A stretch of 64,000 nucleotides of DNA from a virus (taxonomy: Duplodnaviria; Heunggongvirae; Uroviricota; Caudoviricetes), in the IMG/VR virus record IMGVR_UViG_3300027974_000025; one strand, given 5' to 3'. Below are positions 707 through 58,439 of this stretch, piece by piece (the first letter of the stretch is position 1; each line of letters starts with the position of its first letter). The notes under the pieces are model-generated. The model saw nothing but the letters and a program-made list of their open reading frames with translations, searched no databases and was not told the DNA's origin. The position numbers were made by a program, and so were the translations under genes.

Positions 707-738
707 GACACAATTAACAAAAAACAGATATGCAAATA

Positions 739-770
739 TACGCATACATACGCATACATACGCAAATTAT
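739..770. repeat. short tandem repeat (acgcatacat, about 3 copies)
   Basis: Direct 10-nt period, visible in the intergenic sequence. Confidence 0.6.
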
Positions 771-24770: not shown

Positions 24771-24784
24771 GTTCCACGTGGAAC
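24771..24784. promoter_or_regulatory. perfect 14-bp palindrome GTTCCACGTGGAAC (candidate operator) in the divergent switch region
   Basis: Read directly from the sequence. The flanks extend it to about an 18-bp imperfect palindrome. It lies between the oppositely transcribed gene arms. Confidence 0.45.
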
Positions 24785-24936
24785 GTTTGTTACCTTTTTA
24801 TATAAATATGTAACAAGTTTGGTCAAGGGATGGCTTTACAAAAATAAATTTGGTGGGTATAAAGATTTACCATTATCTTTGGGGGGGATTTAGGGGGGGC
24901 CCTATCTAATACCTCTCTATTAATAAAAGCTTAGAC

Positions 24937-35255: not shown

Positions 35256-35318
35256 TAATGCCCCTCTAAGGATAGTATTCTTAGACTGACACCAGTGGTG
35301 TTTCGCATAAAAAAATCA

Positions 35319-35355
35319 GAAGACTTTCCCCCCACCTCCAAGTGGGGGAGTCTTC
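35319..35355 (+). promoter_or_regulatory. strong intergenic hairpin after the capsid gene (no T-run), a possible attenuator or RNA processing site
   Basis: gaagact-tt-ccccccac...gtggggg-agtcttc. It is preceded by a second small palindrome acaccagtggtgt (35290-35302). Confidence 0.4.
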
Positions 35356-35445
35356 TAACACAGATGGACAGGTGCAAGTAAATTCTGTACAGTGTTCCCT
35401 TCGATGGGGACCATCTGCAAATAAACCAAATAAAAACAACTACAT

Positions 35446-40506: not shown

Positions 40507-43500
40507 ATGTCTTGTTTACCAGGAATGAACTGTGGAGGATATCAGTCAAATGATTGCTGTCCAGAAGTTAATTCAAATTGCGTAGATTATAGCGGACCCA
40601 ATTTACCTTGCTCAGGTGTACAAACACATGACTGCCTAACAACTGTTATTGAAAAGATAGATGACAAGTTATGTAGAGTGGGTAATGGTACGTCTGGTAC
40701 TTCTGGTTCTTCAGGTTCAACTTATGGAACAGCAGGAACTACAGGTACATCTGGTCGTGATGGTACAAGTGGTACTAGTGGAACTAGTGGCTCTACAGGT
40801 ACAACAGGAACAAGTGGTAGATCTGGTACCTCAGGAACTACAGGCACATCAGGTGGATCTGGTACTTCAGGAACTTCTGCAACAAGTGGATCTAGTGGTA
40901 GAAATGGATCAAGTGGTACGTCTGGTACAAATGGATCATCTGGTACTGCTGGAACTAGTGGAAGAGCTGGTACTACTGGTACAAGTGGTTCATCTGGTAC
41001 AACAGGAACAAGTGGATCAAGCGGTACAACTGGAACCTCTGGTACAACAGGTACAGACGGTTCTTCAGGAACATCAGGTTCTAGTGCTTCTTCAGGCACA
41101 TCAGGAACAACTGGTACAGATGGTTCATCTGGTACAACAGGTTCTTCTGGTATTTCAGGTGACAGATATTTTACTACATCTGCAGATTCACATACATTAG
41201 GTACTGCAGGAACTCTCACTGTAGGAACAAACTTAGCCTACACTCCTGGTCAATCAATTATTATTGCTCATAGTGCCACTGAATATCAAGTGAGCACATT
41301 ACTAACATATAATGCTGGTACAGGTGCCATGTCTTTTAGTGCACCTTCTACAACAGTAGGTTCTGGTACATTTACTGCGTGGAATGTAAATTTACAGGGA
41401 GCTGCAGGTGGTGATGGATCTAGTGGTACATCTGGCTCTGCTGGTACATCAGCATCTTCAGGAACAAGTGGTTCTACAGGTACAAGTGGAACTAGTGGTT
41501 CTACTGGTACTAGTGGTACATCTGGTACTTCTGGATCTAGTGGAACAACAGGAACCTCAGGAACAAATGGAACATCTGGTTCTACAGGAACTTCTGGCAC
41601 AAGTGGGACATCTGGTTCTTCAGGCACAACTGGTACAAGTGGAACATCTGGCACTTCTGGCTCAACTGGTACAACTGGTACATCTGGTACAGCAGGAACA
41701 TCTGGAACTAGTGGTTCTACAGGAACAACTGGTACAAGTGGTACTAATGGTACTTCAGGAACATCAGGCTCAACTGGAACCACTGGTACAAGTGGTACAT
41801 CAGGGTCAACTGGTACAACTGGAACAAGTGGTACTAATGGAACAAGTGGTACTAGTGGTTCTAGTGGTTCTAGTGGAACATCTGGCACATCTGGAACAAG
41901 TGGTAGTACAGGAACTACAGGTACCTCAGGTACAACTGGTACAAGTGGAACTAGCGGTTCTACAGGTACAAGTGGTACTTCAGGTACAAGTGGTTCTACA
42001 GGTACAAGTGGTTCTACAGGAACATCAGGAACAAGTGGTACAACTGGAACTAGTGGTACAAATGGTACTAGTGGAAGTAGTGGTACAGCAGGTACAAATG
42101 GTACTAGTGGATCAACAGGAACTTCTGGAACATCTGGTTCTACAGGAACTTCTGCTAGTTCAGGACAATCTGGTACATCAGGTAGTTCTGGTACATCTGG
42201 TACAGCAGGTACATCAGGATCTGTAGGTACATCAGGTACAACTGGAACTAGTGGAACCTCAGGTACAAGTGGTTCAACAGGATCTTCAGGCACATCAGCT
42301 TCTTCAGGTACATCAGCTTCTAGTGGTTCTAGTGGATCTTCTGGAACTAGTGGGACATCAGGTACTAGTGGTACAACTGGTTCAAGTGGAACAACAGGTA
42401 CTTCTGGTACATCAGGTACAAGTGGTTCAACAGGTACCTCAGGTACAACTGGTACAAGTGGTACATCTGGAATAAATGGTACTGCTGGAACTTCTGGTAC
42501 TAATGGATCTAGTGGTACATCAGGTATCTCTGGTAATATATATGCAACAACATCTTCTACTAACCTAACAATAGGTACAGGTACTAAAAACCTTACTGTT
42601 GCAACAGGTTTATCTTATACGGTTGGACAAAGTGCTATTATAGCAAATAGTGTAGGTAATGACATGACTGGCCCTGTTATTTCATATAACAGCGGAACAG
42701 GTGCCCTATCTGTAAATGTATTAACTACTAATGGTAGTGGTACATATTCTACATGGAGTGTTAACTTGGCTGGTGCCTCTGGTGGTACTGGTTCTTCTGG
42801 AACTTCTGGATCTTCTGGTTCTACAGGAACTAGTGGTACTTCTGGATCAACAGGAACCTCTGGTACAAGTGGAACTAGTGGTACATCAGGGTCAACTGGT
42901 ACAACTGGAACTAGTGGTACTTCAGGTACTAGTGGTACATCAGGATCAACTGGAACATCAGGAACTTCTGGTACTAGTGGTTCTACTGGTACATCTGGAC
43001 TTACTGGAACTGCAGGTACAAGTGCTTCAGCAGGAACTAGTGGATCAAATGGATCTTCTGGTTCTTCTGGTACAACTGGAACCTCAGGGACAAGTGCTTC
43101 TTCTGGATCAAGTGGTACAGCAGGAACTTCTGCTTCTTCTGGTACTTCTGGATCTAGTGGTTCATCTGGTTCATCTGGAACAACTGGTACTACAGGAACT
43201 AGTGGAATTAATGGAACAAGAGGAACAAGTGGAACTACAGGTACCTCAGGTACAACTGGTACAAGTGGTTCAACAGGAACAACAGGTACCAGTGGAACTA
43301 GTGGTATAAATGGAACTAATGGTATTAATGGAACAAGTGGAACCTCTGGTACAAATGGTACTAGTGGTACAGCTGGTACTAATGGAAGTAGTGGAACAAA
43401 TGGTACTAGTGGAATAAATGGAACAAGTGGTACAACTGGAACTAGTGGTACAACAGGTACCAGTGGAACAAGTGGATCTAGTGGTACAGTTGGTACAAGT

Positions 43501-46488
43501 GGTACAGTTGGTACAAGTGGAACTAATGGTTCTAACGGAACATCTGGAACAACAGGTACTAGTGGTACAAGTGGTACAAATGGTTCTAATGGAACATCTG
43601 GTACTAGTGGTACAAATGGTACAAGCGGAACAAATGGTTCAAGTGGTACATCTGGAGTTAATGGTACATCAGGAACAGCAGGTTCTAGTGGTACATCTGG
43701 AACAAGTGGTTTTAATGGAACATCTGGTACAACAGGTACCTCTGGAACAACTGGAACAACTGGTACTAGTGGAACAAGTGGAACAAATGGTTCTAATGGT
43801 ACAACAGGTACTAGTGGTACCGTTGGTACAAGTGGAACATCTGGCACTAGTGGATTTGGTACATCAGGTACAAGTGCCTCTTCTGGTACAGCAGGAGTAA
43901 GTGGAGATAGATATCAAACAACTTCCACTAGTGCATTCACTCTTGGTAACAATGGTACTATAACAGTGGGAACAGGACTTGCTTATACAGCAGCTCAGGT
44001 TATTCGTATTGTATATGATGCCACTCGCTATCAAGATTCTTTAGTTATATCATATAATAGTGCAACTGGTTCATTATCTTTTGATACTCCTACCCTTACA
44101 GTTGGATCAGGAACATTTAGTTCTTGGACAGTTAACTTAGCTGGAGCTAGTGGTGGTAATGGTTCTAGTGGTGTAAGTGGTACAGCAGGTACTTCTGGTG
44201 CTAGAGGTACAAGTGGTACAGCTGGTACATCTGGTACATCTGGAACTAGTGGTTCATCAGGAACAACAGGTACAGCTGGTACTAGTGGATTTGGAACAAG
44301 TGGGACATCAGGAACATCTGGTACAAATGGATCAAATGGATCTAGTGGAACTGCTGGTACGTCTGGTACTAGTGGAACTAATGGTTCTAGTGGCACATCT
44401 GGTACTTCTGGATCTTCTGGTACAAGTGGTACAGCAGGAACTAGTGGATCTAATGGATCTAGTGGTACTTCAGCTTCTTCAGGTACAGCAGGTACAAGTG
44501 GTACTTCTGCTTCTAGTGGTACATCAGGTACAAATGGATCAAGTGGAACTGCAGGTATAAGTGGAATATCTGGAACTAGTGGTACATCTGCATCTTCAGG
44601 TACATCTGGAGCAAATGGTCCAACTGGTGCAACTGGTACCAATGGTACATCAGGACTAACTGGAGCAAGTGGTTCAAGTGGAACATCTGGATTAACTGGT
44701 GCTAGTGGTTCTTCTGGTACATCAGGTGCAAATGGTGGCACTGGATCAAGTGGAACATCAGGTGCAACTGGAGCATCAGGTACTAGTGGTAGTTCAGGTT
44801 CTAGTGGTACTTCAGGAGAGAGTCCATCAATAAGTGGATTATTACCTTTGGCTGGAGGCACAATGACAGGTCAAATTGTTCTCAGTAAATCTACATCAGT
44901 GTCTGATTATTCTAATGGTATAAGATTCCCTAATGATCCATTTGGTGGATCTGGAGATACAAGTGGTTTTAGAATATATGCTTCATCAGGCGAAGCACAA
45001 GTGGTAGAAATATATGTTAAGAATGATGCTGATGATATAATTAATTTCTCAGCACCTTCTAATAATGGTGTAACAATAAATAATAGTGTTATTTGGAATA
45101 CAGCTAATTTAGCAAATGTAAGTCAACTATCTAATGATGCTGGATATATTACAGCTTCTGGAAGTATTACAGGTTCTGCTAGAAGTTTAGATAGTAGTAA
45201 CTATATTAATAGAACAGGATCTTCAGGTAATTACAATATAGACTTCCAAAACACACCAGCTGGTACTTACAGATATCAAGGAGATGATGCATCTGCAACT
45301 AATAATCCAGGTGGTACTTGGTGGATGGTAGAAAACATGCGTCACTCAAATGGTAGTAACTATTGGGGTACACAAATTGCATGGGGCTGGGAAGATAATG
45401 CTAATAGACTAGCTACAAGAAATATTTCTGGAGGAACCTTTAGTTCATGGGTTTATTATCTAAATAGTTCTAATTTCACTAGCTATGCTCCATCTTTAAC
45501 AGGAGCAGGAGCTTCTGGTAGTTGGGGTATTAGTGTTACAGGTAGTGCTGGTTCATTATCTAACACCAACATATCTCAGTTCACAAATGATTCAGGTTAT
45601 ATAACAATAGCAGCATTGTCCTCATACCTTCCTTTAACAGGAGGTACAATGTCTGGTGCAATATTATTTGCTAATAATATAGGTACTGCTTTACAAGGTA
45701 CTATGGCTGATAATGATTTTTGGAGAATATTAGGAGGCAATACAGGAAGCAACAATGGTTATTTAGAAATAGCTACAGCAGATGATGGAACAGAGCCTAT
45801 CTACTTCAGACAATACACAGGAGTGTTTGGTTCTTTAGTTAGAACAGCTACAATATTAGATGGTTCAGGTAATACATTATTACCAGGTAATGTTGGAATT
45901 GGAACAAATCCAAACTACAAGCTCGATGTTAATGGTTCAACTTTCTTAGCAGGTTCTACTAAATTTATAGCAGGAGGTACTAACTATAATGAAAATATTA
46001 GATGTACAGCTTCGTCAAATGATTATTCCTCCATTATATTAGGAGCTGTAGCTGGTGATATAGGTACAGGAGTTGGACAATGGACTTTGGTAAGATGGCC
46101 ATCAGCAAATAGTTATAAATTTACTATTAGATATAATAATACTGATAGTCTTACTATAGATACATCTAATAACTTAACAATGTTAGGTAGTGTAACTGCT
46201 AGTTCTTTCTTTGAAGGTTCAGATATAAGATTTAAAAACGTATTAGAAACAAATCCAGATATCAAAGTATTAGGAATAGATGTAATTAAATTTACAAGAA
46301 CAGATGATGATACCAATGCAGTTAGGTATGGTTATTCAGCTCAACAAGTGCAAGAGGTAATACCAGAGGCAGTTGCAGGAGATGATAAATTATCTGTAAA
46401 CTATATGGATGTACATACATTAAAGATTGCAGCATTAGAAAAACGTATTGCAGAATTAGAAGCTAAATTGAATAAATATGGCATATAG
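40507..46488 (+). CDS. giant collagen-like tail fibre (1993 aa) with a C-terminal peptidase-S74 intramolecular chaperone domain
   Basis: After an N-terminal Cys-rich docking domain come about 1100 residues of uninterrupted Gly-X-Y triplets with X,Y almost only Thr/Ser/Ala/Asn (GTSGTSGSTGTTGTSG...). Three paralogous domains of about 85 aa are interspersed in the triplet region. The fibre-repeat motifs LPLAGGTMTGQIVL and LPLTGGTMSGAILF follow. The C-terminal GSDIRFKNVLE...YGYSAQQVQEVIPEAVAGDDKLSVNYMDVHTLKIAALEKRIAELEAKL matches the S74 chaperone signature (SDxRxK...). Confidence 0.8.
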   Translation: MSCLPGMNCGGYQSNDCCPEVNSNCVDYSGPNLPCSGVQTHDCLTTVIEKIDDKLCRVGNGTSGTSGSSGSTYGTAGTTGTSGRDGTSGTSGTSGSTGTTGTSGRSGTSGTTGTSGGSGTSGTSATSGSSGRNGSSGTSGTNGSSGTAGTSGRAGTTGTSGSSGTTGTSGSSGTTGTSGTTGTDGSSGTSGSSASSGTSGTTGTDGSSGTTGSSGISGDRYFTTSADSHTLGTAGTLTVGTNLAYTPGQSIIIAHSATEYQVSTLLTYNAGTGAMSFSAPSTTVGSGTFTAWNVNLQGAAGGDGSSGTSGSAGTSASSGTSGSTGTSGTSGSTGTSGTSGTSGSSGTTGTSGTNGTSGSTGTSGTSGTSGSSGTTGTSGTSGTSGSTGTTGTSGTAGTSGTSGSTGTTGTSGTNGTSGTSGSTGTTGTSGTSGSTGTTGTSGTNGTSGTSGSSGSSGTSGTSGTSGSTGTTGTSGTTGTSGTSGSTGTSGTSGTSGSTGTSGSTGTSGTSGTTGTSGTNGTSGSSGTAGTNGTSGSTGTSGTSGSTGTSASSGQSGTSGSSGTSGTAGTSGSVGTSGTTGTSGTSGTSGSTGSSGTSASSGTSASSGSSGSSGTSGTSGTSGTTGSSGTTGTSGTSGTSGSTGTSGTTGTSGTSGINGTAGTSGTNGSSGTSGISGNIYATTSSTNLTIGTGTKNLTVATGLSYTVGQSAIIANSVGNDMTGPVISYNSGTGALSVNVLTTNGSGTYSTWSVNLAGASGGTGSSGTSGSSGSTGTSGTSGSTGTSGTSGTSGTSGSTGTTGTSGTSGTSGTSGSTGTSGTSGTSGSTGTSGLTGTAGTSASAGTSGSNGSSGSSGTTGTSGTSASSGSSGTAGTSASSGTSGSSGSSGSSGTTGTTGTSGINGTRGTSGTTGTSGTTGTSGSTGTTGTSGTSGINGTNGINGTSGTSGTNGTSGTAGTNGSSGTNGTSGINGTSGTTGTSGTTGTSGTSGSSGTVGTSGTVGTSGTNGSNGTSGTTGTSGTSGTNGSNGTSGTSGTNGTSGTNGSSGTSGVNGTSGTAGSSGTSGTSGFNGTSGTTGTSGTTGTTGTSGTSGTNGSNGTTGTSGTVGTSGTSGTSGFGTSGTSASSGTAGVSGDRYQTTSTSAFTLGNNGTITVGTGLAYTAAQVIRIVYDATRYQDSLVISYNSATGSLSFDTPTLTVGSGTFSSWTVNLAGASGGNGSSGVSGTAGTSGARGTSGTAGTSGTSGTSGSSGTTGTAGTSGFGTSGTSGTSGTNGSNGSSGTAGTSGTSGTNGSSGTSGTSGSSGTSGTAGTSGSNGSSGTSASSGTAGTSGTSASSGTSGTNGSSGTAGISGISGTSGTSASSGTSGANGPTGATGTNGTSGLTGASGSSGTSGLTGASGSSGTSGANGGTGSSGTSGATGASGTSGSSGSSGTSGESPSISGLLPLAGGTMTGQIVLSKSTSVSDYSNGIRFPNDPFGGSGDTSGFRIYASSGEAQVVEIYVKNDADDIINFSAPSNNGVTINNSVIWNTANLANVSQLSNDAGYITASGSITGSARSLDSSNYINRTGSSGNYNIDFQNTPAGTYRYQGDDASATNNPGGTWWMVENMRHSNGSNYWGTQIAWGWEDNANRLATRNISGGTFSSWVYYLNSSNFTSYAPSLTGAGASGSWGISVTGSAGSLSNTNISQFTNDSGYITIAALSSYLPLTGGTMSGAILFANNIGTALQGTMADNDFWRILGGNTGSNNGYLEIATADDGTEPIYFRQYTGVFGSLVRTATILDGSGNTLLPGNVGIGTNPNYKLDVNGSTFLAGSTKFIAGGTNYNENIRCTASSNDYSSIILGAVAGDIGTGVGQWTLVRWPSANSYKFTIRYNNTDSLTIDTSNNLTMLGSVTASSFFEGSDIRFKNVLETNPDIKVLGIDVIKFTRTDDDTNAVRYGYSAQQVQEVIPEAVAGDDKLSVNYMDVHTLKIAALEKRIAELEAKLNKYGI
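40684..44822 (+). repeat. low-complexity triplet-periodic DNA (GGW-ACW-WSW) encoding the collagen-like region, in four blocks
   Basis: Blocks at about 40684-41157, 41416-42531, 42791-43892 and 44161-44822. They are separated by the three domains of about 255 nt. The region generates many spurious antisense ORFs. Confidence 0.8.
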
Positions 46489-48649: not shown

Positions 48650-48688
48650 ATAGTTAAAAACCTCTGTTTGTTGGTTTACAGAAGGTCT

Positions 48689-48722
48689 CCCCTAGGGTTT
48701 CTACCCTGGGGGTTTTTTGTTT
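48689..48722 (+). terminator. rho-independent terminator
   Basis: cccctaggg(48689-48697)-tttcta-ccctggggg(48704-48712), a 9-bp stem with one G-U pair, followed by TTTTTTGTTT. Confidence 0.6.
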
Positions 48723-48772
48723 AAACTCTAACTAAAAAAGTTATTGTATATAATTAAATTAGTTAGTAAAAT

Positions 48773-48804
48773 TTTGAAAATGTCAGAAATAGTTCTTACC
48801 TTTA
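48773..48804 (+). promoter_or_regulatory. Bacteroidetes-type promoter (TTTG, 20-nt spacer, TACCTTTA)
   Basis: TTTG at 48773-48776 and TACCTTTA at 48797-48804. It lies upstream of the 48833 start, which carries the AACTACATATG leader. Confidence 0.4.
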
Positions 48805-48832
48805 CAATAATTTTAACCAAAATAAACTACAT

Positions 48833-50083
48833 ATGCCTGAAAATCAATCCTTGCTACAACAGCTAGAAGAGATGGTACATTGGAAAAAGAGTAAAAAGTT
48901 CTATGCTGATAAGCTTGGAATTACAGAGTTTGAGGTGGATGAGCTATTAAAAGAATTAAGAAATCAAGAACAAAGTGAAGAAGATGCTGAGATAGGAAAC
49001 TATGTTGCTGAGTTAGAAAACGCAGTGATTAAGTTTACAGAAGATTTAGCTAAGGGTACAGGAGAGGTTGTAGCTAATTTTAGTGAAGAGGTTAAGAGTC
49101 TTGATGAGCTCATTGAGAAATGTAAGATAGATACAGAGAAGTGGGAGATAACCAAATATGTCCAAAACTTCTGGGGGAATGGAGGAAATCCTCATTGGCA
49201 AGTCAAAGCATGGTTAGGGAAGAAGTCTACAGAGCAAGTTTTTCAAGATGTGTTTGTAGACTTTTTAACTTCATATAAGCCTGTGTCTCAAGAAGTTATG
49301 AGTCCTAAGGTTGACTTTAACAAACCAAATGGTATGTTAGTTATCAACAAACAAGACTCTCATTTAAACAAATGGGATATAGATGGTAACAATAATGTGG
49401 CAGACAGACTAGCTAACATTATGTACAAGGTGGAACTAATAGCTAATCAAGCTCAATTGTCCAACAACTTAGAGAACATAACTTACATAATAGGATCTGA
49501 TGAGTTTAACAGTGAGTATACCAATGCCACTACAAAAGGAACTCCTCAGCAGAACACACATACATATCATACATCTTTTGAATACATCTGTGGACATGAG
49601 GTGTTAATGATTACAATGTTATTACAATATGCTCAGAACGTTAATGTAATATACGTGGCAGGTAATCATGATGAGTTTGTAGGATGGCATATGGTTAACT
49701 GGTTACAAACCTACTTCAGGAATGTAGAAAGATTAACCTTTGATTGTTCTCCTAAGTATAGAAAGTATGTAAGTTATGGTGATTCAGCATTGATGTTTAA
49801 CCATGGAGATGCTATCAAACCAGTTAAGCTTGCAGGTTTATTCCCAATAGAGTTTAGAGAACATTGGTCTAGTCATAGCAAGTTCTACATTTTTACAGGA
49901 GACAAACACCATGAGGTGAGTCAAGATTTTAATGGTATAAAGTTTTATCAAATTCCAGCATTTTCAAATGCTAAAAGTCTTTGGGACGACAAGATGGGTC
50001 ACACAATGTCCAAGGCAGAAGTAACAGGATTTTTAATAGATGACTGTGATGGAATGACAAATATATTCAAACAGTATTTATAA
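48833..50083 (+). CDS. metallophosphoesterase (calcineurin-like) domain protein
   Basis: 416 aa. The C-terminal half carries the MPE motifs IIGSDEF (GD), VAGNHDE (GNHD/E), FNHGD and FTGDKHHE. The N-terminal half is helical and acidic. Confidence 0.55.
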   Translation: MPENQSLLQQLEEMVHWKKSKKFYADKLGITEFEVDELLKELRNQEQSEEDAEIGNYVAELENAVIKFTEDLAKGTGEVVANFSEEVKSLDELIEKCKIDTEKWEITKYVQNFWGNGGNPHWQVKAWLGKKSTEQVFQDVFVDFLTSYKPVSQEVMSPKVDFNKPNGMLVINKQDSHLNKWDIDGNNNVADRLANIMYKVELIANQAQLSNNLENITYIIGSDEFNSEYTNATTKGTPQQNTHTYHTSFEYICGHEVLMITMLLQYAQNVNVIYVAGNHDEFVGWHMVNWLQTYFRNVERLTFDCSPKYRKYVSYGDSALMFNHGDAIKPVKLAGLFPIEFREHWSSHSKFYIFTGDKHHEVSQDFNGIKFYQIPAFSNAKSLWDDKMGHTMSKAEVTGFLIDDCDGMTNIFKQYL

Positions 50084-50820
50084 TGGCAACATTAAGACAA
50101 ATGGTTTCAGATGTACGTTCAGTACATAAATTGCTCACTACAGATAATCTAATTACTGATAGAGTAGTTGCGTCTGAAATCAAGAACAACACACTTTTAC
50201 TAATCAAGCGTGAGACTAATCTCAGAAAGCTTTGGGCTACTGACACTGTATTTCAAACACTTCCTTGTTTGGAAATGATAGAGGTGCCCATCTCTGATTG
50301 TTGTGAATATGTGGAACCATGTCAAGTTGCAAGAAGCAGATATAAACTTCCTCGCATCAGTGAGGGAAACTATCAATACTTAATCCAAGGTGTTTATTCT
50401 ATAAACGCTATGGGAGGTAATGGTAAAAGATTCAAAGAGATTACAATCAATAGATACTTAAATCTATTAAAACTACCTATCATCAAAGCTGAACAATACT
50501 ATTGGATAGCAAATGGTGGGTATCTATATATCAACAATCCTAATTTACAATCAGTTAGAATATCTGCCTTCTTTGAAGAAGATGTTCCAAATAAGATTTT
50601 ATATCCTGAGGATTGTGCTTGTGGAAACATTCCTCAAGTTAGTGATGAAGATTATTGCATAAATCCATTAGACAAGGAATATGGATGCCCTGGTTACTTA
50701 ATAACACAAGTGTTACAACTTACTTCTCAAAAACTATTATCGACATACTTTAGCATTAAAACAGACCAAACATTTGATGGCATTGATGGACAAGCTCCCA
50801 ATGCAAAACCAACTAGCTAA
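50083..50820 (+). CDS. virion/tail structural protein (hypothetical, Cys-containing)
   Basis: 245-aa ORF packed with the ATAATGG overlap. Confidence 0.4.
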   Translation: MATLRQMVSDVRSVHKLLTTDNLITDRVVASEIKNNTLLLIKRETNLRKLWATDTVFQTLPCLEMIEVPISDCCEYVEPCQVARSRYKLPRISEGNYQYLIQGVYSINAMGGNGKRFKEITINRYLNLLKLPIIKAEQYYWIANGGYLYINNPNLQSVRISAFFEEDVPNKILYPEDCACGNIPQVSDEDYCINPLDKEYGCPGYLITQVLQLTSQKLLSTYFSIKTDQTFDGIDGQAPNAKPTS

Positions 50821-51296
50821 TGCGTACCAAGATAGACTGGAGAAGTTCTAGTAAAGAAAACTACAGTAACTTTTGTAAGAAACATCCCACCATAAAAATT
50901 ACATTTGATGAGTGGCGAAACATTATATATTTATATAATGACAATTTTAAAAACTACATTCTAGAAACAGGAGAGAAAGCAAGACTTCCTTTTGGCTTTG
51001 GTGAGTTCTCTATCAATAAAAAGAAGAGAAGAAAAACAAAGACAGTTGATGGAAAGGAGATGGTCAATCTACCAGTTGATTGGCAGAGAACAAAACAAAA
51101 AGGCAAAATCATCTACAACTTCAATTATCACACAGAAGGTTACTTCTTTGGATGGATGTGGTTTAAAGAGTCCACTAGGATTCGTAATATAAATCTTTGG
51201 TATTTCAAACCTTCTCGTACCACTTCTAGATTGCTGTCACATTACATAAAAACAGATGATAAATACCAACACATTTATTGTGAATGGAAAAAATAA
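50820..51296 (+). CDS. hypothetical protein
   Basis: 158-aa basic ORF. Confidence 0.4.
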   Translation: MRTKIDWRSSSKENYSNFCKKHPTIKITFDEWRNIIYLYNDNFKNYILETGEKARLPFGFGEFSINKKKRRKTKTVDGKEMVNLPVDWQRTKQKGKIIYNFNYHTEGYFFGWMWFKESTRIRNINLWYFKPSRTTSRLLSHYIKTDDKYQHIYCEWKK

Positions 51297-51302
51297 AAGA
51301 AC

Positions 51303-52277
51303 ATGGCATACTACTACAAGTACAATTTTGTCTCACCTGAACCAGTTTATTCAACTGTTAAAGAAGAGTTAAAATCTTATTTTGACACAGGAGCAGTTGA
51401 TGATTTGTTGTTCCCTACTTACTTAGACAAGTGTCTACAGAAGTTGGGCAGATCAAGTTATGTTATTGCTGAACAAACATTAGATATTTCTGGTTATGAA
51501 GCTAGACTTCCTGACAACTTCTTTGCTGTTAGAGAAGCTTGGATGTGTACAGAGTTACCATCTAACTATCCATATCAGACAGCTAATTCATTCTATTCTC
51601 AAGCTGCTACACAAACAACTATTCAAGTGAGTCCTATTGTAACAGACTGTACTATTCCTAGTCCATGTTGTGGCAATGTAGGATGTGATGGTAGCTGTAT
51701 GCCTGAGATTATACAAACTGTATACAAAACTAATCAACAGATTGCTAGAGGAATAAGAAAACAATATCTATTAAAACCAGGTAATATATCTTGTCAAAAC
51801 AGATGTGATGTAACTTATACAGATGCTTGGCAGTTTTATACAAGTGTGCCTCCTGTACGTGAGTTCACTCCAGGAAGTGCTGGTTATGATAGCTTTGACA
51901 TTAGAGATAATAAGTTTGTTACTAACTTTAGTTCTGGTGTTGTTCATATGATATTCTATGCTACAGACTATGATGCTGTTGGTAATCAATTGATTCCTGA
52001 CAACTATCGTATAAGAGAGTTTGTAGAAGCCTTTATTAAATACAAGGTGTTTGAGACATTGTCTAATCAAATCAATGATGAAACTTTCAATCAAATACAG
52101 CAGAAGTTAGTATACTACAAACAGCTACATGATGAAGCATTCATTATGGCTAACATTGAAATAAAGAAGCAAGACGCATGGACTAAACAAAGAAGAGTAA
52201 GAAATGACTTACAACGCTTTGCACAATATGAATTACCAAATAGAAGCTCAAGATATGGCAGTGGATGGAATAGATAA
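51303..52277 (+). CDS. virion/tail structural protein (hypothetical)
   Basis: 324 aa with a Cys cluster CTIPSPCCGNVGCDGSCMPE. Confidence 0.4.
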   Translation: MAYYYKYNFVSPEPVYSTVKEELKSYFDTGAVDDLLFPTYLDKCLQKLGRSSYVIAEQTLDISGYEARLPDNFFAVREAWMCTELPSNYPYQTANSFYSQAATQTTIQVSPIVTDCTIPSPCCGNVGCDGSCMPEIIQTVYKTNQQIARGIRKQYLLKPGNISCQNRCDVTYTDAWQFYTSVPPVREFTPGSAGYDSFDIRDNKFVTNFSSGVVHMIFYATDYDAVGNQLIPDNYRIREFVEAFIKYKVFETLSNQINDETFNQIQQKLVYYKQLHDEAFIMANIEIKKQDAWTKQRRVRNDLQRFAQYELPNRSSRYGSGWNR

Positions 52278-55200
52278 TCAAGAAACATCCAATATAAGAC
52301 AAGAATACAATCTTGGCAGAGTTGGATTAGACATGGACTCTTCTGTAAATCAAATACAGAAGGGTAAGCTTTCTTATGCTCTAAACGCAGCATTAGAAAA
52401 CTTTGACTCTAATTCTGTAAGCTATCAAAACGAGCCAAGTAATGAAGCTTGTTTAGAGTTTCCTGCAGGCTACCATCTTATTGGAACACATTTTATTCAA
52501 GAGAAAAATAAACACATATTCTTCTTAGCTAATCCTGAAACAGGGGGAAGTGAGATAGGATATATGAATAACAATGATTGTATCTATCATACACTTTGTA
52601 CTCCTATTCCTGATACAGAACTAACAGTTTGTGCTAATTCTCCATGCTTAAACTTTGATATAAACTATCCAATACACAAAGCTGTACATAAGATAACCAA
52701 TTGTACTACAGAAGTTTATTGGACTGATGGATTAAATCCAAGAAGATTTATTAATATTGAACAGGTTCCTTACATTACCACCTATCTAAACAATCAAACT
52801 TGTGATCCACAGATCCAAGCAACATTAGATTGTAATAAGTTAAATGTACAACCTAACTTTCAAATTCCTAATATAGAGGTTTCTGATATTGTTGTAGGAG
52901 GAGATTTAAAAGCAGGTACTTATCAGTTTGCTATTCAATATGGCAATGCTTCAGGAGATGCTTACACATCTTATTACTCTGTAACTAATCCTGCATCTAT
53001 TGCTAATACAGAGGTGACTACACCTGACTTTCAATATTCTGTAGGTAAGTCTATTGTATTGAGTATCACTAACTTAGACATTACAGGATACTTCCAATAT
53101 TTTAACTTGGCTGTTATAAAAACCATCAATAATGGTACCACTGTAGAATTAGTGGGAACATATAACATTCAAGAAAAGAATAGATTAATTACTTACACAG
53201 GACAGAATGTAACTCAAATTCCTTTGAGTCTTGCAGATGTTCTTGAAAAGTTCCCTTATTATGAGATTGCTAAAGACGTAACAAATGTACAAGATGTTAT
53301 AGTTTGGGACAACCTTACCTCCATTGATAGAATCAACTATCAAAGCATAGCTAATCAAATACAACTTCAATGGGAGACATATAAACTACCAGCTGGTAAT
53401 ACCTATGCTGATGGTTTTTATACAGCTAACTTGAGAGGATATTTGAGAGATGAGGTGTATGCTTTTGAAATAGTATTCTTATTAGATAATGGTAAACAAA
53501 CAGATGGTTTCCATATTCCTGGTAGAGCTAAGAACTTCAACGAGATATCTGAGCCAGATGTAACAACAGCTAATGCTGATTATATAGGAGATGGACTTCC
53601 TCAACCTTATTGGAAGATATATAATACAGCTTCTGTATCTACAACATATCCTGTTCCTACAGGAGATGCTAAAAAGATAGGAGATGCATATCCTTATCAA
53701 TCTGGAGACTTTGCATATTGGGAGTCTACAGACTTATATCCTTGTAATACAGATGTATGGGGAGAGCTTGCTGGAACACCAATTAGACACCATAAGTTTC
53801 CTGATGTTCTTGTAAGTCCTTACTTTGAGAGCCCAAGTATCATATATTCTGGAGGTCAGATAGATCCTGTAATGCAAACAGCTAATGCCATCTATCCAAT
53901 AGGTGTGAAGATAGATGTACAACAAATAGAATTTATCATTCAAAACTCTAGTTTAACAAATGCAGAGAAGGCATCTATTGTTGGATTTAAAATAGTAAGA
54001 GGTAATAGAAGTACAAACAAATCTATTATTGCTAAGGGTATATTAAGAAATGTAGGTAAGTATGAAAGAGAAGGAACAGAATATTACTATCCTAACTATC
54101 CTTACAATGATTTAAGTACAGATCCATTCTTACTTAAAGAGAACAATGCATACAATTCACAATGTGATACATTCACAATAACAACAATAACTCCTGGTAA
54201 GTTACAATATACAAACTGTAATACAGGAGAACCAGATACATTAACCTTTGATAGTAGTGTTACTAGTATTTGTTCTATTACACTTCCTGTTGTAAATAGT
54301 GGATCAGCTACATTTGTAAATGTTACAGCTACATCATATACAATTAATGTAATTTCTGGTAGCACTTCTTTTAATTATACAGATATAATTACAAACGCTT
54401 TACAGAGCATTACTATTGTTTCAGGAAATCCACAATCTGTAAATTCAAAAACTGTTCCTGTACGTACAGGCGGAAGTACTAACTTTACAATGGTTGCTAG
54501 TAATGTTGGTCAAAACAATGAATGTTATCCTAAACAATTAGATGGATTTAATAATGCTGACTCTCCTTACAGACAAGTGTTTAACTCTCCAGAAACTTCT
54601 TTTGGACAGCCTACATTAGGTAATGTTCTTAAGTTAGAAAGTGTATTGTTTGGTGGAGGAAGAGCTCATTTTGTTGAGGTGCAAAAACATGCAATGTATA
54701 AGCTCCTTACTAAGCAAATACAAATTGATGCTTTGGATTCTAGTAGAAGAATAGCTGACCTAGGAGGGTTTAGTGCCACAGCAATGTTTACAGCTTACCA
54801 GTCTTATCTACAAATATACATCAATGGTGTTAGTAGAAAGAACTTTGCATATTCTTTTAACTCTATATCTAGCTATGACTATAGTTCAGATATTCCTAAT
54901 AATCAGGGAGTTAAACAAAGACAACTTGATAAATCTCAATACATATTTCCAGGTGTACAGAACGTAGGTGATAATCATGATATTAACAACTGGAATAGAG
55001 AATCTTCAGTTTATGTTAAAACCATTGATAGTAGAGATGGTGTACCTTTTACAGTGGCTCCTCTACCATATCCTAATCAAACTCCTTCTCTTGTTGTAGC
55101 AGGTGTAAGTCAGATTAGTGATAATTCAAGATTTACTCTTGGAGAATCAGGAAACTGTGCATCTCCTGAATTTCAACAACCTATAAAAGTGGTATCTTAT

Positions 55201-57111
55201 TATGGTTCTATAAAGACTATTAATAATGCTCAATGGGGGCAGATATATTCATATCAAACTATTGACACAGGATTCCAAAGAATATTTAATACCATCCCAG
55301 CTAATGATCCTGAAGTGGTATTTGGTGGTGATACATACATTGGTAAATTTGGATTTAAAACAAAACTTCCTTTCTTTATAGATAATAGAGTGGGTGCTCC
55401 TGATGATTCTGATATATACTACGATGAGATTGGTAATGTAGCCTATCCACAATATTGGTATTCAGCAAGATCTATACTATCTGATTACTATGTAGGAAGC
55501 ACATTGATGAAGAACATCATCTCTATCAAAGCTCATAATTTTGATTGTCCTAATGATGCTATTGTAGATACATCAACAACTACAACATCAAGTTCTACCA
55601 CTCCTGCTGTAGGAACAACAACTTCTGGTTCTTTCAACTATGTGTACGATGGTAAGATGTATGTGTTTGCTTATGGTGTTCCTTACTACTATGTAGAAAG
55701 TTCTATTAATGTAGACTTACGTCAGGCATTCAATAACTTAGAAGGTGACTTCTACCCACACGTAAGCTCAGGTATTCCTGATAGCTGGTTCCAAGAAAGT
55801 AGAGTTCCTATTGCATTTGATAATACTTATTATTACAATACAACTTTCTCTAAACAGAATACAGAAAACTTCTTCTCTCATTTACCAACAGATTGGAAAC
55901 AACAGTTGTGTTATACATATTTTCCATTCAGAGCAATATATTCTGACAGACAGGAAAGCTATTCTGATAATAGAATAAATAGCTGGTTGATATATCGTCC
56001 AGTGAGCTTCTTTGATTTCCCTCAGAACTATGGTAATCTAATATCATTAGATGGTATTCAGAACAGAGCTACATTAGCTAGGTTTGAGAACAAGACTTTA
56101 TTGTATGGCAACTTATTAACAATTGATACAAGCAATCCTCAGGCTGCATATTTAGGCAATCCTTATTTATTTGGTGGTCCTGGTGGAACTCCTCCAGTAG
56201 ATTATGCTGAGACAGATCTTGGATTTGTTGGTTGTCAGAATAAGTTTTTACTTAAGATACCTCAAGGACAAATAACTATTGATGCTAAGAGAGGACAGAT
56301 ATTTTTAATCCAAGGAACACAGGCACAGGAAATTTCAGGGTTTGGTTCTGGTCTTAATAGGTTCTTTACAGACCATTTGGCATTTGAAATCTTGAGATAC
56401 TTTCCAATAGTAGATACAGACAACCATTTCAAAAACATTGGATTACATGGTGTATATGATAGTAAGTTTGAAAGAATTATTATCACTAAGTTAGATTATA
56501 TTCCTCAGCCAACTAAGGATGTGTTTTATGATGATGTGGCTAAAGAGTTTTATGTTAATCAACCTGTGGCTGGTAATATTTCAGTTAAGAAATATGTTGA
56601 GGTGACAGATCTTGAATACTTCTGTAACAAATCATGGACTGCATCATTTAACTTGAATACAAAGAGCTGGGTGAGTTTCCACACATACCTACCTAACTTC
56701 TACATAGGAGAAAACAACTTCTTCTATTCTGGCTTAAATGAAGGTTGTGATGTCACAGCAATAGCAGTTACAGAAATACCTTCTCCAACCACAACTACAA
56801 CCACAACAATAATTATATATTGTAACCTAACTGGTACAGCTGTAGTGACAGGATATCCTTGTCTTTTAGAGGGAACAGTGGTAGAAGAAACTACAACAAC
56901 AACAACTTCTACATCTACTAGCACAACAACAAGTACAACAAGTAGTACTACTTCTACATCTACTAGTAGTACTACTTCTACATCTACTAGTAGTACTACT
57001 TCTACATCTACAACTACTGTACCTTTTGAATGTACATTAGTACCAGGATCTTTTACAACAGAACCTGATTGTGCATTAGTAGCAGGAGAATTTATATATG
57101 AACCTTCATAA
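52255..57111 (+). CDS. large virion structural protein (about 1620 aa), a putative tail/host-recognition protein. The start is uncertain (track ORF begins at 52204).
   Basis: A very long, beta-rich ORF. The C-terminal Thr/Ser linker is encoded by a perfect 24-nt x3 tandem repeat. It ends with a Cys-containing module of about 40 aa. Confidence 0.5.
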   Translation: MAVDGIDNQETSNIRQEYNLGRVGLDMDSSVNQIQKGKLSYALNAALENFDSNSVSYQNEPSNEACLEFPAGYHLIGTHFIQEKNKHIFFLANPETGGSEIGYMNNNDCIYHTLCTPIPDTELTVCANSPCLNFDINYPIHKAVHKITNCTTEVYWTDGLNPRRFINIEQVPYITTYLNNQTCDPQIQATLDCNKLNVQPNFQIPNIEVSDIVVGGDLKAGTYQFAIQYGNASGDAYTSYYSVTNPASIANTEVTTPDFQYSVGKSIVLSITNLDITGYFQYFNLAVIKTINNGTTVELVGTYNIQEKNRLITYTGQNVTQIPLSLADVLEKFPYYEIAKDVTNVQDVIVWDNLTSIDRINYQSIANQIQLQWETYKLPAGNTYADGFYTANLRGYLRDEVYAFEIVFLLDNGKQTDGFHIPGRAKNFNEISEPDVTTANADYIGDGLPQPYWKIYNTASVSTTYPVPTGDAKKIGDAYPYQSGDFAYWESTDLYPCNTDVWGELAGTPIRHHKFPDVLVSPYFESPSIIYSGGQIDPVMQTANAIYPIGVKIDVQQIEFIIQNSSLTNAEKASIVGFKIVRGNRSTNKSIIAKGILRNVGKYEREGTEYYYPNYPYNDLSTDPFLLKENNAYNSQCDTFTITTITPGKLQYTNCNTGEPDTLTFDSSVTSICSITLPVVNSGSATFVNVTATSYTINVISGSTSFNYTDIITNALQSITIVSGNPQSVNSKTVPVRTGGSTNFTMVASNVGQNNECYPKQLDGFNNADSPYRQVFNSPETSFGQPTLGNVLKLESVLFGGGRAHFVEVQKHAMYKLLTKQIQIDALDSSRRIADLGGFSATAMFTAYQSYLQIYINGVSRKNFAYSFNSISSYDYSSDIPNNQGVKQRQLDKSQYIFPGVQNVGDNHDINNWNRESSVYVKTIDSRDGVPFTVAPLPYPNQTPSLVVAGVSQISDNSRFTLGESGNCASPEFQQPIKVVSYYGSIKTINNAQWGQIYSYQTIDTGFQRIFNTIPANDPEVVFGGDTYIGKFGFKTKLPFFIDNRVGAPDDSDIYYDEIGNVAYPQYWYSARSILSDYYVGSTLMKNIISIKAHNFDCPNDAIVDTSTTTTSSSTTPAVGTTTSGSFNYVYDGKMYVFAYGVPYYYVESSINVDLRQAFNNLEGDFYPHVSSGIPDSWFQESRVPIAFDNTYYYNTTFSKQNTENFFSHLPTDWKQQLCYTYFPFRAIYSDRQESYSDNRINSWLIYRPVSFFDFPQNYGNLISLDGIQNRATLARFENKTLLYGNLLTIDTSNPQAAYLGNPYLFGGPGGTPPVDYAETDLGFVGCQNKFLLKIPQGQITIDAKRGQIFLIQGTQAQEISGFGSGLNRFFTDHLAFEILRYFPIVDTDNHFKNIGLHGVYDSKFERIIITKLDYIPQPTKDVFYDDVAKEFYVNQPVAGNISVKKYVEVTDLEYFCNKSWTASFNLNTKSWVSFHTYLPNFYIGENNFFYSGLNEGCDVTAIAVTEIPSPTTTTTTTIIIYCNLTGTAVVTGYPCLLEGTVVEETTTTTTSTSTSTTTSTTSSTTSTSTSSTTSTSTSSTTSTSTTTVPFECTLVPGSFTTEPDCALVAGEFIYEPS
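56941..57012 (+). repeat. perfect tandem repeat, 24 nt x3 (agtagtactacttctacatctact), encoding SSTTSTST x3
   Basis: Read directly in the sequence, inside the coding region of the 1635-aa protein. Confidence 0.8.
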
Positions 57112-57127
57112 AATAATATAATATAAT

Positions 57128-57562
57128 ATGCCATTTTCAGCAACAATAAGTTTAACTTCAGCAGGAACAGATACAGGTCCTTTTGATTTATATTCAGATG
57201 TGGATTCTTTTGTAACTCCCTTTGAATCAGGAGTTAGTAAATCAGCTTTACTTTCAGGATTTTTATCATTTAATGTGCCTAATACAACAGTTACCTGTAG
57301 AGTTAAGTCTGCAGGAGCGTGTGTTAATTATGTAGATATGCCTATTGATGATCCTTACATATTTGTATATCAAAGATGTGATACATTAGATTATTATTAT
57401 AGGATAGGATTATCAACAACAGGTAATGTAGAAGATGATAATGCACCTACACCAAATTGTTATCAATATGTTGCTCAAGGATTATTATCAGTTATGAATG
57501 CTACTTATCCAAGTTTAACAATTAATAACACTCTATCTCCTTCAGGTTGTTTCTGTGTTTAA
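57128..57562 (+). CDS. fibre-associated protein, paralogous family member 2
   Basis: Its N-terminus MPFSATISLTSAGTDTGPFDLYSDVDSFVTPFESGVSKSALLSGF is homologous to those of 48029 and 57573. Confidence 0.5.
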   Translation: MPFSATISLTSAGTDTGPFDLYSDVDSFVTPFESGVSKSALLSGFLSFNVPNTTVTCRVKSAGACVNYVDMPIDDPYIFVYQRCDTLDYYYRIGLSTTGNVEDDNAPTPNCYQYVAQGLLSVMNATYPSLTINNTLSPSGCFCV

Positions 57563-57572
57563 AATAATATAA

Positions 57573-58439
57573 ATGGCTAAAACAGTAATAATAAGATTGA
57601 CATGTTCAGGTGGCAGAACAGGACCCTTTGATATCTCTGATAACTTAGGGACAGTCTTGGGCACTGACATCACTAAGCAAAACCTTATTGATGGTTACAC
57701 TGTTAGTGTTGCTGATGCTGTTACTACAATAGTTATACAATCTCAAGGTAAGTGTTCTACTACTATAAACGTTACTATTGGCACAGCTACAAAAGAACAA
57801 CTAGCTGCGTTAACATACACTGTATGTAACACAGGATCTATGTGGAGACATCTAACAGATGTAATTAACTATAACAAGTATTATGGTAATGTAGAACCAT
57901 ACATAATTGAATATCCATTTGCTTACCAAAGCTATGATGAGATACTTCAGAATGTAAAAGATTATAGTAAGGTGTTTAATTACTTACCTATTCCAGATGG
58001 TGTGTTTAATGACAACGCTCAAATACAGGTTGATAATCAATGGTTTAACAAAGCTGTTCTATACAATGGACAACAGTCCACAGGTATATTAGAACTTGTA
58101 CCAAAGCCAATCAATAACCTAAGTCAATATCTAACCTACCCTATATACAATGAGTTTAGCAAGACTATCACTTATACTAAATCAGATAACTTCTATCAAT
58201 ATAATACATTCTGGGGGTTAGTTAAGAATAAATCAGTACCTTTGTTTTCAACAAGTTGTGAGTCTTTATCAATAGATAAGATTGTATATCAACCAAATAT
58301 GGACTATGGAAAAAGATCATTCAAGAAAGAACCATTAAGAGCTAAGGATCTTAAGGTGAGACACATTCTTGATAACAGCTCTGAAGCACATATAGTGAGC
58401 CAATTTATTATTGCACCATCTCAAATCTCTTACAAATAA
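57573..58439 (+). CDS. fibre-associated protein, paralogous family member 3
   Basis: Its N-terminus MAKTVIIRLTCSGGRTGPFDISDNLGTVLGTDITKQNLIDGYTV has the same pattern. Confidence 0.5.
   Translation: MAKTVIIRLTCSGGRTGPFDISDNLGTVLGTDITKQNLIDGYTVSVADAVTTIVIQSQGKCSTTINVTIGTATKEQLAALTYTVCNTGSMWRHLTDVINYNKYYGNVEPYIIEYPFAYQSYDEILQNVKDYSKVFNYLPIPDGVFNDNAQIQVDNQWFNKAVLYNGQQSTGILELVPKPINNLSQYLTYPIYNEFSKTITYTKSDNFYQYNTFWGLVKNKSVPLFSTSCESLSIDKIVYQPNMDYGKRSFKKEPLRAKDLKVRHILDNSSEAHIVSQFIIAPSQISYK

Follow-up and report, generated by a model that had tools for sequence, protein, structure and literature searches.

The window analyzed here is a 64,000-nt stretch of a tailed-phage genome (IMG/VR record IMGVR_UViG_3300027974_000025), and its source is a ~115-kb freshwater crAss-like phage. 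On the + strand it contains a 416-codon open reading frame encoding a metallophosphoesterase (MPE), which is preceded by fibre genes and followed by genes matching the crAss Ring-2, Ring-1, and muzzle families (Table 1).

Table 1. Features of the MPE gene, its upstream region, and its operon, in window coordinates
Feature	Position	Strand	Description
Intrinsic terminator	48689-48722	+	End of tail-fibre transcription unit; 10-bp G+C-rich stem, 4-nt loop, U-run
Promoter-like site	48773-48804	+	Bacteroidota type, from pattern search: TTTG (-33), N20, TACCTTTA (-7)
Leader	48805-48832	+	Short, A-rich, unstructured; ends in AACTACAT before ATG
MPE open reading frame	48833-50083	+	416 aa
MPE residues 1-64	48833-49024	+	Three-helix HTH-like module; helix 3 extends as a long acidic linker helix
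MPE residues 65-165	49025-49327	+	Family-specific beta-sheet/helix domain, fold not recognisable
MPE residues 166-416 and stop	49328-50083	+	Calcineurin-like metallophosphoesterase domain
Motif I	49355-49363	+	D175/H177 (D175-S-H177)
Motif II	49499-49501	+	G221-S-D223
Family loop	49529-49549	+	TTKGTPQ, residues 233-239; adjoins motif II
Motif III	49664-49669 (N/H)	+	G277-N-H-D280
Motif IV	49802-49804	+	H324
Motif V	49901-49909 (D357-H359)	+	G356-D-K-H359
Ring-2 gene	50083-50820	+	crAss tail-barrel gene; the identical copy in JGI contigs matches PF25702
p158	50820-51296	+	158-aa open reading frame
Ring-1 gene	51303-52277	+	crAss Ring-1; PF24228
Muzzle gene	52204-57111	+	PF25731
Rest of operon after Ring-2	50820-57111	+	PHROG 'virion structural protein' matches

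The MPE gene heads the tail-barrel operon

The MPE stop codon overlaps the Ring-2 start codon as TAATG, an arrangement found at all 78 related loci with a readable junction, and there is no terminator downstream of the MPE gene. This overlap makes MPE the first cistron of an operon that continues through Ring-2, p158, Ring-1, and the muzzle gene. The downstream order, R2 ... R1 and then muzzle, is that of PhicrAss001, whose tail-barrel module comprises THA gp38, THB gp39, R2 gp40, gp41, gp42, and R1 gp43 (PMC10172136). In PhicrAss001 the hub proteins gp38 and gp39 are numbered before R2 gp40 and no MPE is listed among the components described, whereas here fibre genes, a terminator, and MPE precede Ring-2.

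Upstream of MPE, the terminator hairpin (48689-48712) and its T-run were picked up by the terminator scan, and the structure has an MFE of -19.9 kcal/mol (z -2.75). Compensatory double changes keep its stem paired in related loci (for example CCCCTAGGG/CCCTGGGG, CCCCTGGCC/GGCTGGGG, CCCCTTGAG/CTTAGGGG, and CCCCCGATG/CATTGGGGG). The promoter-like site that follows consists of TTTG at 48773-48776 and TACCTTTA at 48797-48804; across 80 related loci its -7 box shows conservation of at least 95%, and the adjacent intergenic DNA is variable. A near-identical site, TTTG-N19-TACTTTTA, precedes the gene at 32395. The pattern and its conservation suggest a promoter, and the Bacteroidota type fits better than the Sigma-70 consensus, for which the promoter scan showed no enrichment (28 found vs 32.8 expected). 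The leader has a predicted MFE of 0 kcal/mol. The string AACTACATATG occurs exactly three times (at 32387, 35438, and 48825; 0.15 expected), each time at a + strand start codon, and the leader is common to MPE and the genes starting at 32395 and 35446; its upstream part, TTTTAACCAA, is kept in relatives.

An earlier, sequence-only reading of this locus had proposed the terminator, the promoter, and the common leader, and all three are present. It had also called the other two leader-bearing genes highly expressed head genes; they flank the capsid gene but have no assigned function. Its description of the MPE gene as stand-alone and insulated does not hold, as the gene is joined to that of Ring-2.

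MPE belongs to a large phage family

In the AF2 secondary structure the N-terminal module consists of helices at residues 2-17, 21-28, and 32-64. Residues 1-64 carry a net charge of -9, compared with +3 for the median of the family, and the pI of the entire protein is 5.1. The MPE domain, previously placed in the C-terminal half, occupies residues ~166-416, or the C-terminal 60% of the protein. All five superfamily motifs (DxH, GD, GNH[DE], H, GHxH) are found in order, with Asp replacing the first His of motif V in this subfamily. The literal strings GNHDE (277-281), NHGD (323-326), and GDKHH (356-360) had been recognised in the sequence-only reading, but motif II is G221-S-D223 rather than a literal GD, and motif I (D175-x-H177) had been overlooked. 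In an alignment of 115 family sequences, residues D175, H177, D223, N278, H279, H324, and H359 never vary; the fold is predicted with high confidence and has the beta-sandwich of the superfamily, and purifying selection acts on all three domains (dN/dS about 0.10). The motifs and the modelled fold identify the product as a binuclear calcineurin-type metallophosphoesterase, as had been suggested, and the full active-site set indicates that it is catalytically intact.

A Pfam scan of the MPE protein returned no Metallophos match (PF00149/PF12850), even at E<=10, whereas 40 and 24 of 115 family relatives matched PF00149 and PF12850, respectively (E<0.01). Because MPE itself does not reach the Pfam gathering score, its superfamily membership rests on transitive and structural evidence. 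Scanning NCBIfam likewise gave no match for MPE, and the nearest models among its relatives were the PdeM nuclease (15/115, weak), SbcD (3/115), and the PolD small subunit (3/115). When the family profile was compared with the PDB, SbcD/Mre11 came first among MPEs, with marginal E-values of 0.008-0.015.

A full-length match was obtained to PHROG 704 (E 6.2e-45, 155 bits, residues 8-408 on profile positions 9-378 of 390), which is labelled 'DNA repair exonuclease'. Its members, which bear this label in RefSeq, include Lactobacillus phage Lrm1 gp50, Bacillus phage vB_BhaS-171 gp01, Synechococcus phage S-CBS2 gp003, and Leptolyngbya phage Lbo-JY46 XAI97391.1, the last of which is likewise encoded upstream of Ring-2. 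MPE has the three-part architecture and the TTxGTPQ loop in common with this family, but is only 24-28% identical to the members from cultured phages and differs in its acidic N-terminal module and in having GDKH at motif V in place of the usual GHxH. The family comprises 3,689 clusters at 50% identity, and its catalytic core and TTxGTPQ motif are conserved across phages of Firmicutes, Bacteroidota, Proteobacteria, Acidobacteria, and cyanobacteria. The N-termini of relatives match Sigma70_r4, HTH_23/24, AsnC-type, and GcrA HTH models and are basic in 61/115, and two family members match the homing-endonuclease-associated repeat PF18780. A literature search found no tested function for any family member, and no relevant virion proteomics or crAss-related phosphoesterase work. 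The database labels in the family ('DNA repair exonuclease', 'DNA polymerase II small subunit', 'GcrA', 'LysR') are homology guesses only. By sequence, MPE is a member of a very large, uncharacterised phage family that most resembles DNA nucleases.

Distribution and genomic position

The order MPE-R2-p158-R1-MUZ also occurs in Lbo-JY46 and in contig L089, at 25-28% identity, and the position of MPE between fibre and Ring-2 genes is identical in these two distant crAss-like phages. MPE divergence across crAss-like lineages is roughly in step with that of its neighbours. The related loci retrieved with a 26-sequence alignment all come from close relatives. MPE is missing from the fibre|Ring-2 junction in 9 of 79 close relatives; these form a sister clade with ring proteins 70-75% identical. 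Cellulophaga phage phi17:2 also has no MPE at this junction, and the two absences mark MPE as an accessory gene. When the sister clade was searched for what might be left of the MPE 5' end, TACATAT..CTGAAAATCA was the best local alignment, but it is not significant (84/500 shuffles score as well), and MAFFT gives another alignment of this region. The scanned 40-kb segment of cr118_1 lacks a homolog, and tblastn gave no crAss-named record among the matches listed. 'MPP' is listed among crAss-like replication genes (PMC7886860).

Unlike its PHROG 704 homologs in most other lineages, the MPE gene lies in a crAss-like tail-barrel operon and not upstream of terS/terL. The homolog is beside terminase genes in 7/18 phage lineages examined, no more than ~2.6 kb upstream of, or between, terS and terL and on the same strand. 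It is near-universal in Lacticaseibacillus phages (46 records), where it sits between the late activator ArpU and HNH-terS, and Leuconostoc phage phiLM33_01 has it between terS and terL. It often adjoins HNH endonucleases, and in one other phage contig it is found between portal and head genes. In the source phage, 21.7 kb separate the MPE gene from the terminase gene. These gene orders repeatedly place the gene first in a late operon, in different phage lineages.

Possible functions of MPE

We propose, with a probability of roughly 45%, that MPE is a late, accessory DNA-processing phosphodiesterase or nuclease heading the tail-barrel operon, with a substrate that we infer. The gene would be transcribed late from the host-type (Bacteroidota) promoter and, as the first cistron before Ring-2, would be translated as packaging and assembly begin. 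The protein would act on nucleic acid as a Mn2+/divalent-metal-dependent phosphodiesterase, presumably a nuclease of the Mre11/SbcD/DP1/PdeM kind, and may trim or clear ends, flaps, hairpins, or branches in replicated phage DNA at the transition from replication to packaging; alternatively, it could degrade competing DNA at that stage. A nucleic-acid substrate is suggested by the first rank of SbcD/Mre11 in the PDB profile comparison, by the PdeM, SbcD, and PolD matches, and by the HTH N-termini of relatives, with a basic N-domain in 61/115. A packaging-stage role is suggested by the terS/terL linkage and by the ArpU|HNH-terS slot in Lacticaseibacillus phages.

Several observations weigh against parts of this proposal. 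The N-terminal module and the protein as a whole are acidic, and so poor for DNA binding. Sequence similarity to Mre11/SbcD is marginal, and MPE differs in its extra N-terminal HTH-like module and novel middle domain; it lacks the capping domain that follows the MPE domain in Mre11/SbcD, and no Rad50/SbcC-type ATPase partner is present among its annotated neighbours (fibre genes, Ring-2, p158, Ring-1, and muzzle). The archaeal PolD small subunit DP1, a 3'-5' proofreading exonuclease, and eukaryotic polymerase B-subunits have a similar phosphodiesterase domain, but the OB-fold directly N-terminal to it is not found in MPE. PdeM, or Pseudomonas putida 'Nuclease MPE' (TIGR04123; PDB 6nvo), is a Mn-dependent ssDNA endonuclease of the superfamily and, of the NCBIfam models, the one with the most matches among relatives; its context is an Lhr/ligase repair operon, in contrast to a phage tail operon. 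The distance to the terminase gene argues against a packaging role, and terminase-adjacent placement elsewhere could be no more than occupancy of the 'first slot of the late operon', a site at which accessory genes gather. A broader version, which we regard as rather unlikely, is that the HTH-MPE family is a functional partner of the packaging machinery across many tailed phages, for example as a packaging-stage nuclease, and may instead have been recruited as a virion-delivered enzyme in an environmental crAss-like lineage. Such a nuclease would have a role analogous to terminase-associated HNH endonucleases or T4 endonuclease VII, but with an Mre11/DP1 fold.

This very large family keeps its active site fully conserved and turns up repeatedly as the first gene of late or packaging operons in phages that are not related. 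Learning what the enzyme hydrolyses would close a gap in the account of late infection for many phages. In the crAss-like group, it would tell whether environmental lineages carry an extra enzyme without a gut-lineage counterpart. For the window itself, the gain is mainly a corrected annotation of operon membership, likely functional class, and accessory status.

MPE might also be loaded into the capsid or tail with crAss cargo proteins, be ejected with the DNA, and act at once as a nuclease or phosphodiesterase. Co-transcription with the tail-barrel genes to which it is joined, a position kept in three divergent crAss-like lineages, and the portal-head placement of one homolog are consistent with this, as is the leader common to two capsid-flanking genes, which suggests output beyond catalytic amounts; crAss-like virions are known to carry cargo proteins (PMC10172136). 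However, MPE is missing at the junction in phi17:2 and in relatives with closely similar ring proteins, the scanned cr118_1 segment has no homolog, and in most other lineages the homolog is upstream of terS and not among structural genes. The operon also holds non-virion genes: phi17:2 gp045, the p158 homolog, is not annotated as structural, although its neighbours are. The tail-barrel and fibre-hub components of PhicrAss001 consulted in the structural atlas (PMC10172136) do not include an MPE either, and we consider packaging of the protein rather unlikely. Cleavage of a small molecule (cyclic mono-, di-, or oligonucleotides, Ap4A, or a nucleotide-sugar pyrophosphate), possibly blunting abortive-infection signalling triggered by late structural proteins, appears quite unlikely. 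The conserved T/G-rich TTxGTPQ loop by motif II could bind phosphate or a nucleotide, the protein is acidic, and its present/absent accessory pattern is typical of counter-defence genes; yet the HTH DNA-binding domains of many relatives would have no obvious role, nuclease families rank first in sequence profiles, and the literature search turned up no known MPE-fold anti-defence family. A PADLOC scan of the MPE protein gave no meaningful match, which, as PADLOC covers defence and not anti-defence systems, shows only that MPE is not a known defence-system component.

At one precise intergenic junction MPE is present in some close relatives and missing in others, which raises the idea of a free-standing, homing-endonuclease-like element (HTH module, linker, and MPE) that invades fibre|Ring-2 or terminase junctions. 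The layout of a DNA-binding module tethered to a nuclease, the swapping of N-terminal modules across the family, the PF18780 matches, the frequent HNH neighbours, and the terS-terL placement in phiLM33_01 would suit such an element. Set against these are the near-universal, syntenic occurrence in Lacticaseibacillus phages, the divergence that roughly matches that of neighbouring crAss-like genes, the strong purifying selection, and a conserved extra domain superfluous for homing endonucleases; to our knowledge, no MPE-fold homing endonuclease has been described, and we judge this origin improbable. The sequence-only reading had favored a phosphoesterase associated with the tail, acting in adsorption on surface polymers with phosphodiester linkages, whether teichoic-acid-like or capsular. 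The gene is outside the tail module in most lineages and dispensable at the tail-operon position in close relatives. Phages whose hosts have unrelated envelopes and share no such polymer keep the same catalytic core and family loop, and MPE has an HTH-like N-terminus and no fibre, spike, or carbohydrate-binding domain or secretion signal; this activity is highly improbable. The other idea put forward there, an Mre11/SbcD-type nuclease misplaced among structural genes, fits the sequence comparisons and the PHROG 704 label better than a surface-polymer hydrolase does, and the gene is not misplaced, as its position recurs.

Gene context and tail-barrel operon

The window is assigned by sequence to a crAss-like phage. 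Its large terminase is closest to that of Leptolyngbya phage Lbo-JY46, followed by the Cellulophaga phage phi17:2 and phi4:1 terminases at 31% identity, with gut crAss phages ranking lower. The region 48650-50083 consists of a 183-nt intergenic region and a single ORF for a metallophosphoesterase (MPE); an identical protein occurs on freshwater JGI contigs (29.6 and 114.7 kb). Tail-fibre genes, among them a collagen-like fibre, lie 5' of the MPE gene; the collagen-like gene also contains long antisense ORFs and long ORFs in alternative frames, as repetitive G-X-Y coding sequence would lead one to expect. The muzzle gene is apparently split over 52204-58439. Elsewhere, an SPFH/Band-7 domain protein (31745-32275, E 7e-27) is encoded between portal and head genes, and the early/replication arm carries a rIIA-like (7702-10053) and rIIB-like (6224-7690) pair on the - strand.

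Features of the MPE locus and reference genes in the window
Feature	Position	Size or strand	Observation
Large terminase	27118-29160		38% identity to Lbo-JY46
Capsid gene	33702-35255		Pfam Crass_capsid match
Tail-fibre protein	40507-46488	1,993 aa	numerous collagen-like repeat matches
Terminator hairpin and U-run	48689-48712 (hairpin)		terminator scan; folds at -19.9 kcal/mol
Promoter-like site	48773-48804		TTTG-N20-TACCTTTA; fits Bacteroidota -33/-7 pattern
MPE ORF	48833-50083	+, 416 aa
MPE domain	residues 166-416		C-terminal
crAss Ring-2	50083-50820		family match on JGI contigs with identical MPE protein
crAss Ring-1	51303-52277		family match on the same contigs
Muzzle ORF (crAss_MUZ)	52204-57111	1,635 aa	family match on the same contigs
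144-aa ORF	57128-57562	144 aa	between muzzle and 288-aa ORFs; no family match
288-aa ORF	57573-58439	288 aa	residues 89-288 align to C-terminal ~200 residues of single-ORF muzzle proteins of Lbo-JY46 and metagenomic contig L089

The sequence-only reading had described the gene as stand-alone, with its own terminator, promoter and leader. The upstream terminator withstood scrutiny: related IMG/VR loci supplied 56 distinct upstream sequences, in which the stem varies by paired substitutions that preserve pairing, good evidence that the predicted hairpin is a real structure. The candidate promoter site is likewise present. Its -7 box and the leader segment TTTTAACCAA show conservation of ≥95% across 80 related loci; the DNA between them is variable. 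Its designation as Bacteroidota-type relies on what we take to be the consensus, TTTG / TAnnTTTG. A near-identical TTTG-N19-TACTTTTA precedes the gene at 32395, correctly oriented promoter-like matches also precede genes at 24937, 25264 and 14687 (- strand), and a scan of the sigma-70 consensus revealed no enrichment. The leader, predicted to be unstructured, contains AACTACATATG, which occurs exactly three times (0.15 expected), in each case at the start codon of a + strand gene (32395, 35446, 48833). The leader is thus common to three genes, but the description of the other two, hypothetical genes flanking the capsid gene, as highly expressed head genes was a guess.

Other regulatory-like elements were also observed. 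A G/C-rich hairpin (~35329-35348, -14.6 kcal/mol) lies 3' of the capsid gene in 35256-35448; the AACCAAA...AACTACATATG leader copy follows it, and the gene at 35446 has no recognisable promoter in front of it. Between the - and + strand gene blocks, the divergent intergenic region (24619-24936) carries a Bacteroidota-type promoter-like site at 24849-24881 with G7-ATTTA-G7-CCC directly 3' of it, and at 733-766 (- strand) GCGTATGTAT is present in short tandem copies within a promoter-like match.

The gene does not stand alone. No terminator was found downstream of it, and its stop codon overlaps the Ring-2 start as TAATG, a junction kept in 78/78 readable related loci. The terminator ends the fibre unit; the tail-barrel operon then starts with the candidate promoter and leader, followed by the MPE gene as its first cistron.

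The MPE protein

A Pfam scan of the protein returned no Metallophos match even at E≤10, a result that, strictly read, is one of the outcomes the sequence-only reading had named as its own refutation; deeper evidence overrides this miss. A profile search matched PHROG 704 ('DNA repair exonuclease') over residues 8-408 (E 6e-45); D175, H177, D223, N278, H279, H324 and H359, representing calcineurin-like superfamily motifs I-V, are invariant in an alignment of 115 family members; Metallophos and Metallophos_2 are matched by 40 and 24 of these 115 relatives, respectively; and an AlphaFold2 model built from the alignment has a pLDDT of 94.5. Together these results argue for an MPE with an intact five-motif active site, and by motifs and fold the protein belongs to PHROG 704 and the MPE superfamily. 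The motif series first reported had missed motif I, and the GD it gave for motif II in fact reads G-S-D. Motif V in this subfamily is G-D-K-H instead of G-H-x-H, and a TTxGTPQ loop between motifs II and III (residues 233-239) is family-specific and nearly invariant.

An exhaustive HMMER search retrieved 3,689 cluster representatives at E≤1e-3 (1,826 at E≤1e-10), mostly of 400-450 aa, with the match running from ~residue 70 to the C-terminus. The protein is a new member of an already known family of predicted phage enzymes. Among 70 close relatives dN/dS is ~0.10, with conservation covering all three domains. Residues 1-64 are modelled as three HTH-type helices, the third extended as a long helix, and the relatives' N-termini match varied DNA-binding HTH models (Sigma70_r4 at 2.8e-08, HTH_24, AsnC-type, HTH_23 and GcrA). 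This segment is basic in 61/115 family members; here its net charge is -9, and the whole protein has a pI of 5.1. The MPE domain ends the protein, which therefore has no Mre11-like capping domain.

Distribution among phages

The order MPE, Ring-2, p158 (a 158-aa ORF), Ring-1, muzzle is shared with Lbo-JY46 (MPE 25% identical, neighbours 26-34%) and with L089, a crAss-like contig of ~120 kb (28% and 40-47%). In phi17:2 the order is fibre gp047, Ring-2 gp046, gp045, gp044, muzzle gp043, and a family profile search found no MPE in 48 kb of its structural region, nor in a 40-kb stretch of the gut crAss phage cr118_1. By gene number, Ring-2 (gp40) of PhicrAss001 comes after hub proteins gp38 and gp39, and MPE is not among the tail-barrel and fibre-hub components described (PMC10172136).

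A Ring-1-seeded search yielded 79 usable close relatives, 70 with the MPE gene upstream of Ring-2. The other nine (L161, L162, L170, L173-L175, L178-L180; genomes ~110 kb) have none at the junction, where fibre genes are followed by a homologous terminator, ~55 nt and Ring-2 (e.g. L174, 4630-4794). These nine make up a sister clade whose Ring-1 and Ring-2 are 74-76% and ~70% identical, respectively; what looked like a leftover of the MPE start in this clade was not statistically significant. Given these nine and phi17:2, the gene is accessory and dispensable at this tail-operon position.

Across phages more widely, tblastn identified homologs in 231 phage records, with full-length matches in phages of Bacillus, Psychrobacillus, Lacticaseibacillus, Oenococcus, Leuconostoc, Flavobacterium, Elizabethkingia, Rhizobium, Tunturiibacter, Synechococcus and Leptolyngbya. 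In 7/18 lineages examined the MPE gene shares its strand with terS/terL and lies either between them or no more than ~2.6 kb upstream: Bacillus phage vB_BhaS-171 (MPE-HNH-x-HNH-terS-terL), Lactobacillus phage Lrm1 (ArpU-like, MPE-HNH-x-x-terS), Oenococcus phage phi9805 (upstream of terS/terL), Virus Rctr41k, Psychrobacillus phage Perkons and Bacillus phage vB_BcoS-136 (each upstream of a terminase gene), and Leuconostoc phage phiLM33_01 (terS-x-MPE-terL; L103, 3204-4418). Within Lacticaseibacillus phages (A2, J-1, PL-1, phiAT3, Lc-Nu and others; 46 records, locus L006 noted alongside) it is near-universal between the late activator ArpU/DUF1492 and HNH-terS; in A2 the homolog is annotated as two ORFs and may be disrupted. 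Elsewhere, portal, tail, endolysin or clamp-loader genes precede it. What these contexts share is a late-expressed location; often the gene opens a late or packaging operon. PHROG 704-type MPEs appear to be a very widespread late phage enzyme family of predicted function, and the result weighs somewhat more for the family than for this locus.

Substrate and role

An intact, selected active site, late-operon placement and accessory status are established. Several lines point to nucleic acid as the predicted substrate: SbcD/Mre11 are the top MPE matches in the PDB by sequence profile, with nuclease MPEs ranking first; structurally, the DP1 exonuclease matches best; relatives carry DNA-binding N-termini; and conservation of the enzyme core spans hosts that have DNA in common but differ in envelope chemistry. 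Relatives also match the NCBIfam models PdeM, SbcD and PolD-small. Orthology to Mre11/SbcD was ruled out, there being neither a capping domain nor a Rad50-type partner gene nearby, as was orthology to DP1, there being no OB fold; identity with PdeM was rejected.

These lines favour nucleic acid over the surface polymers proposed in the sequence-only reading, whose observation was otherwise largely right; a tail-borne depolymerase is wrong in our judgment and highly improbable. Its other proposal, a nuclease, fares better, with the substrate predicted. Against a nucleic-acid substrate stand the acidic N-terminus of this member, the lack of a partner ATPase near the gene, and a fold that cannot separate nucleases from LpxH- or YfcE-type enzymes. 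A small-molecule phosphodiesterase, possibly acting in counter-defence, is unlikely, and slightly less so is an enzyme packaged as cargo; a mobile homing-type nuclease is more doubtful than either. We tentatively favour, at a probability of roughly 0.45, a nucleic-acid MPE active at the start of packaging, a timing suggested by the linkage of homologs to terminase genes. Such an enzyme would act as packaging begins, for example on replicated DNA, whose ends, flaps, hairpins or branches it would trim or clear.
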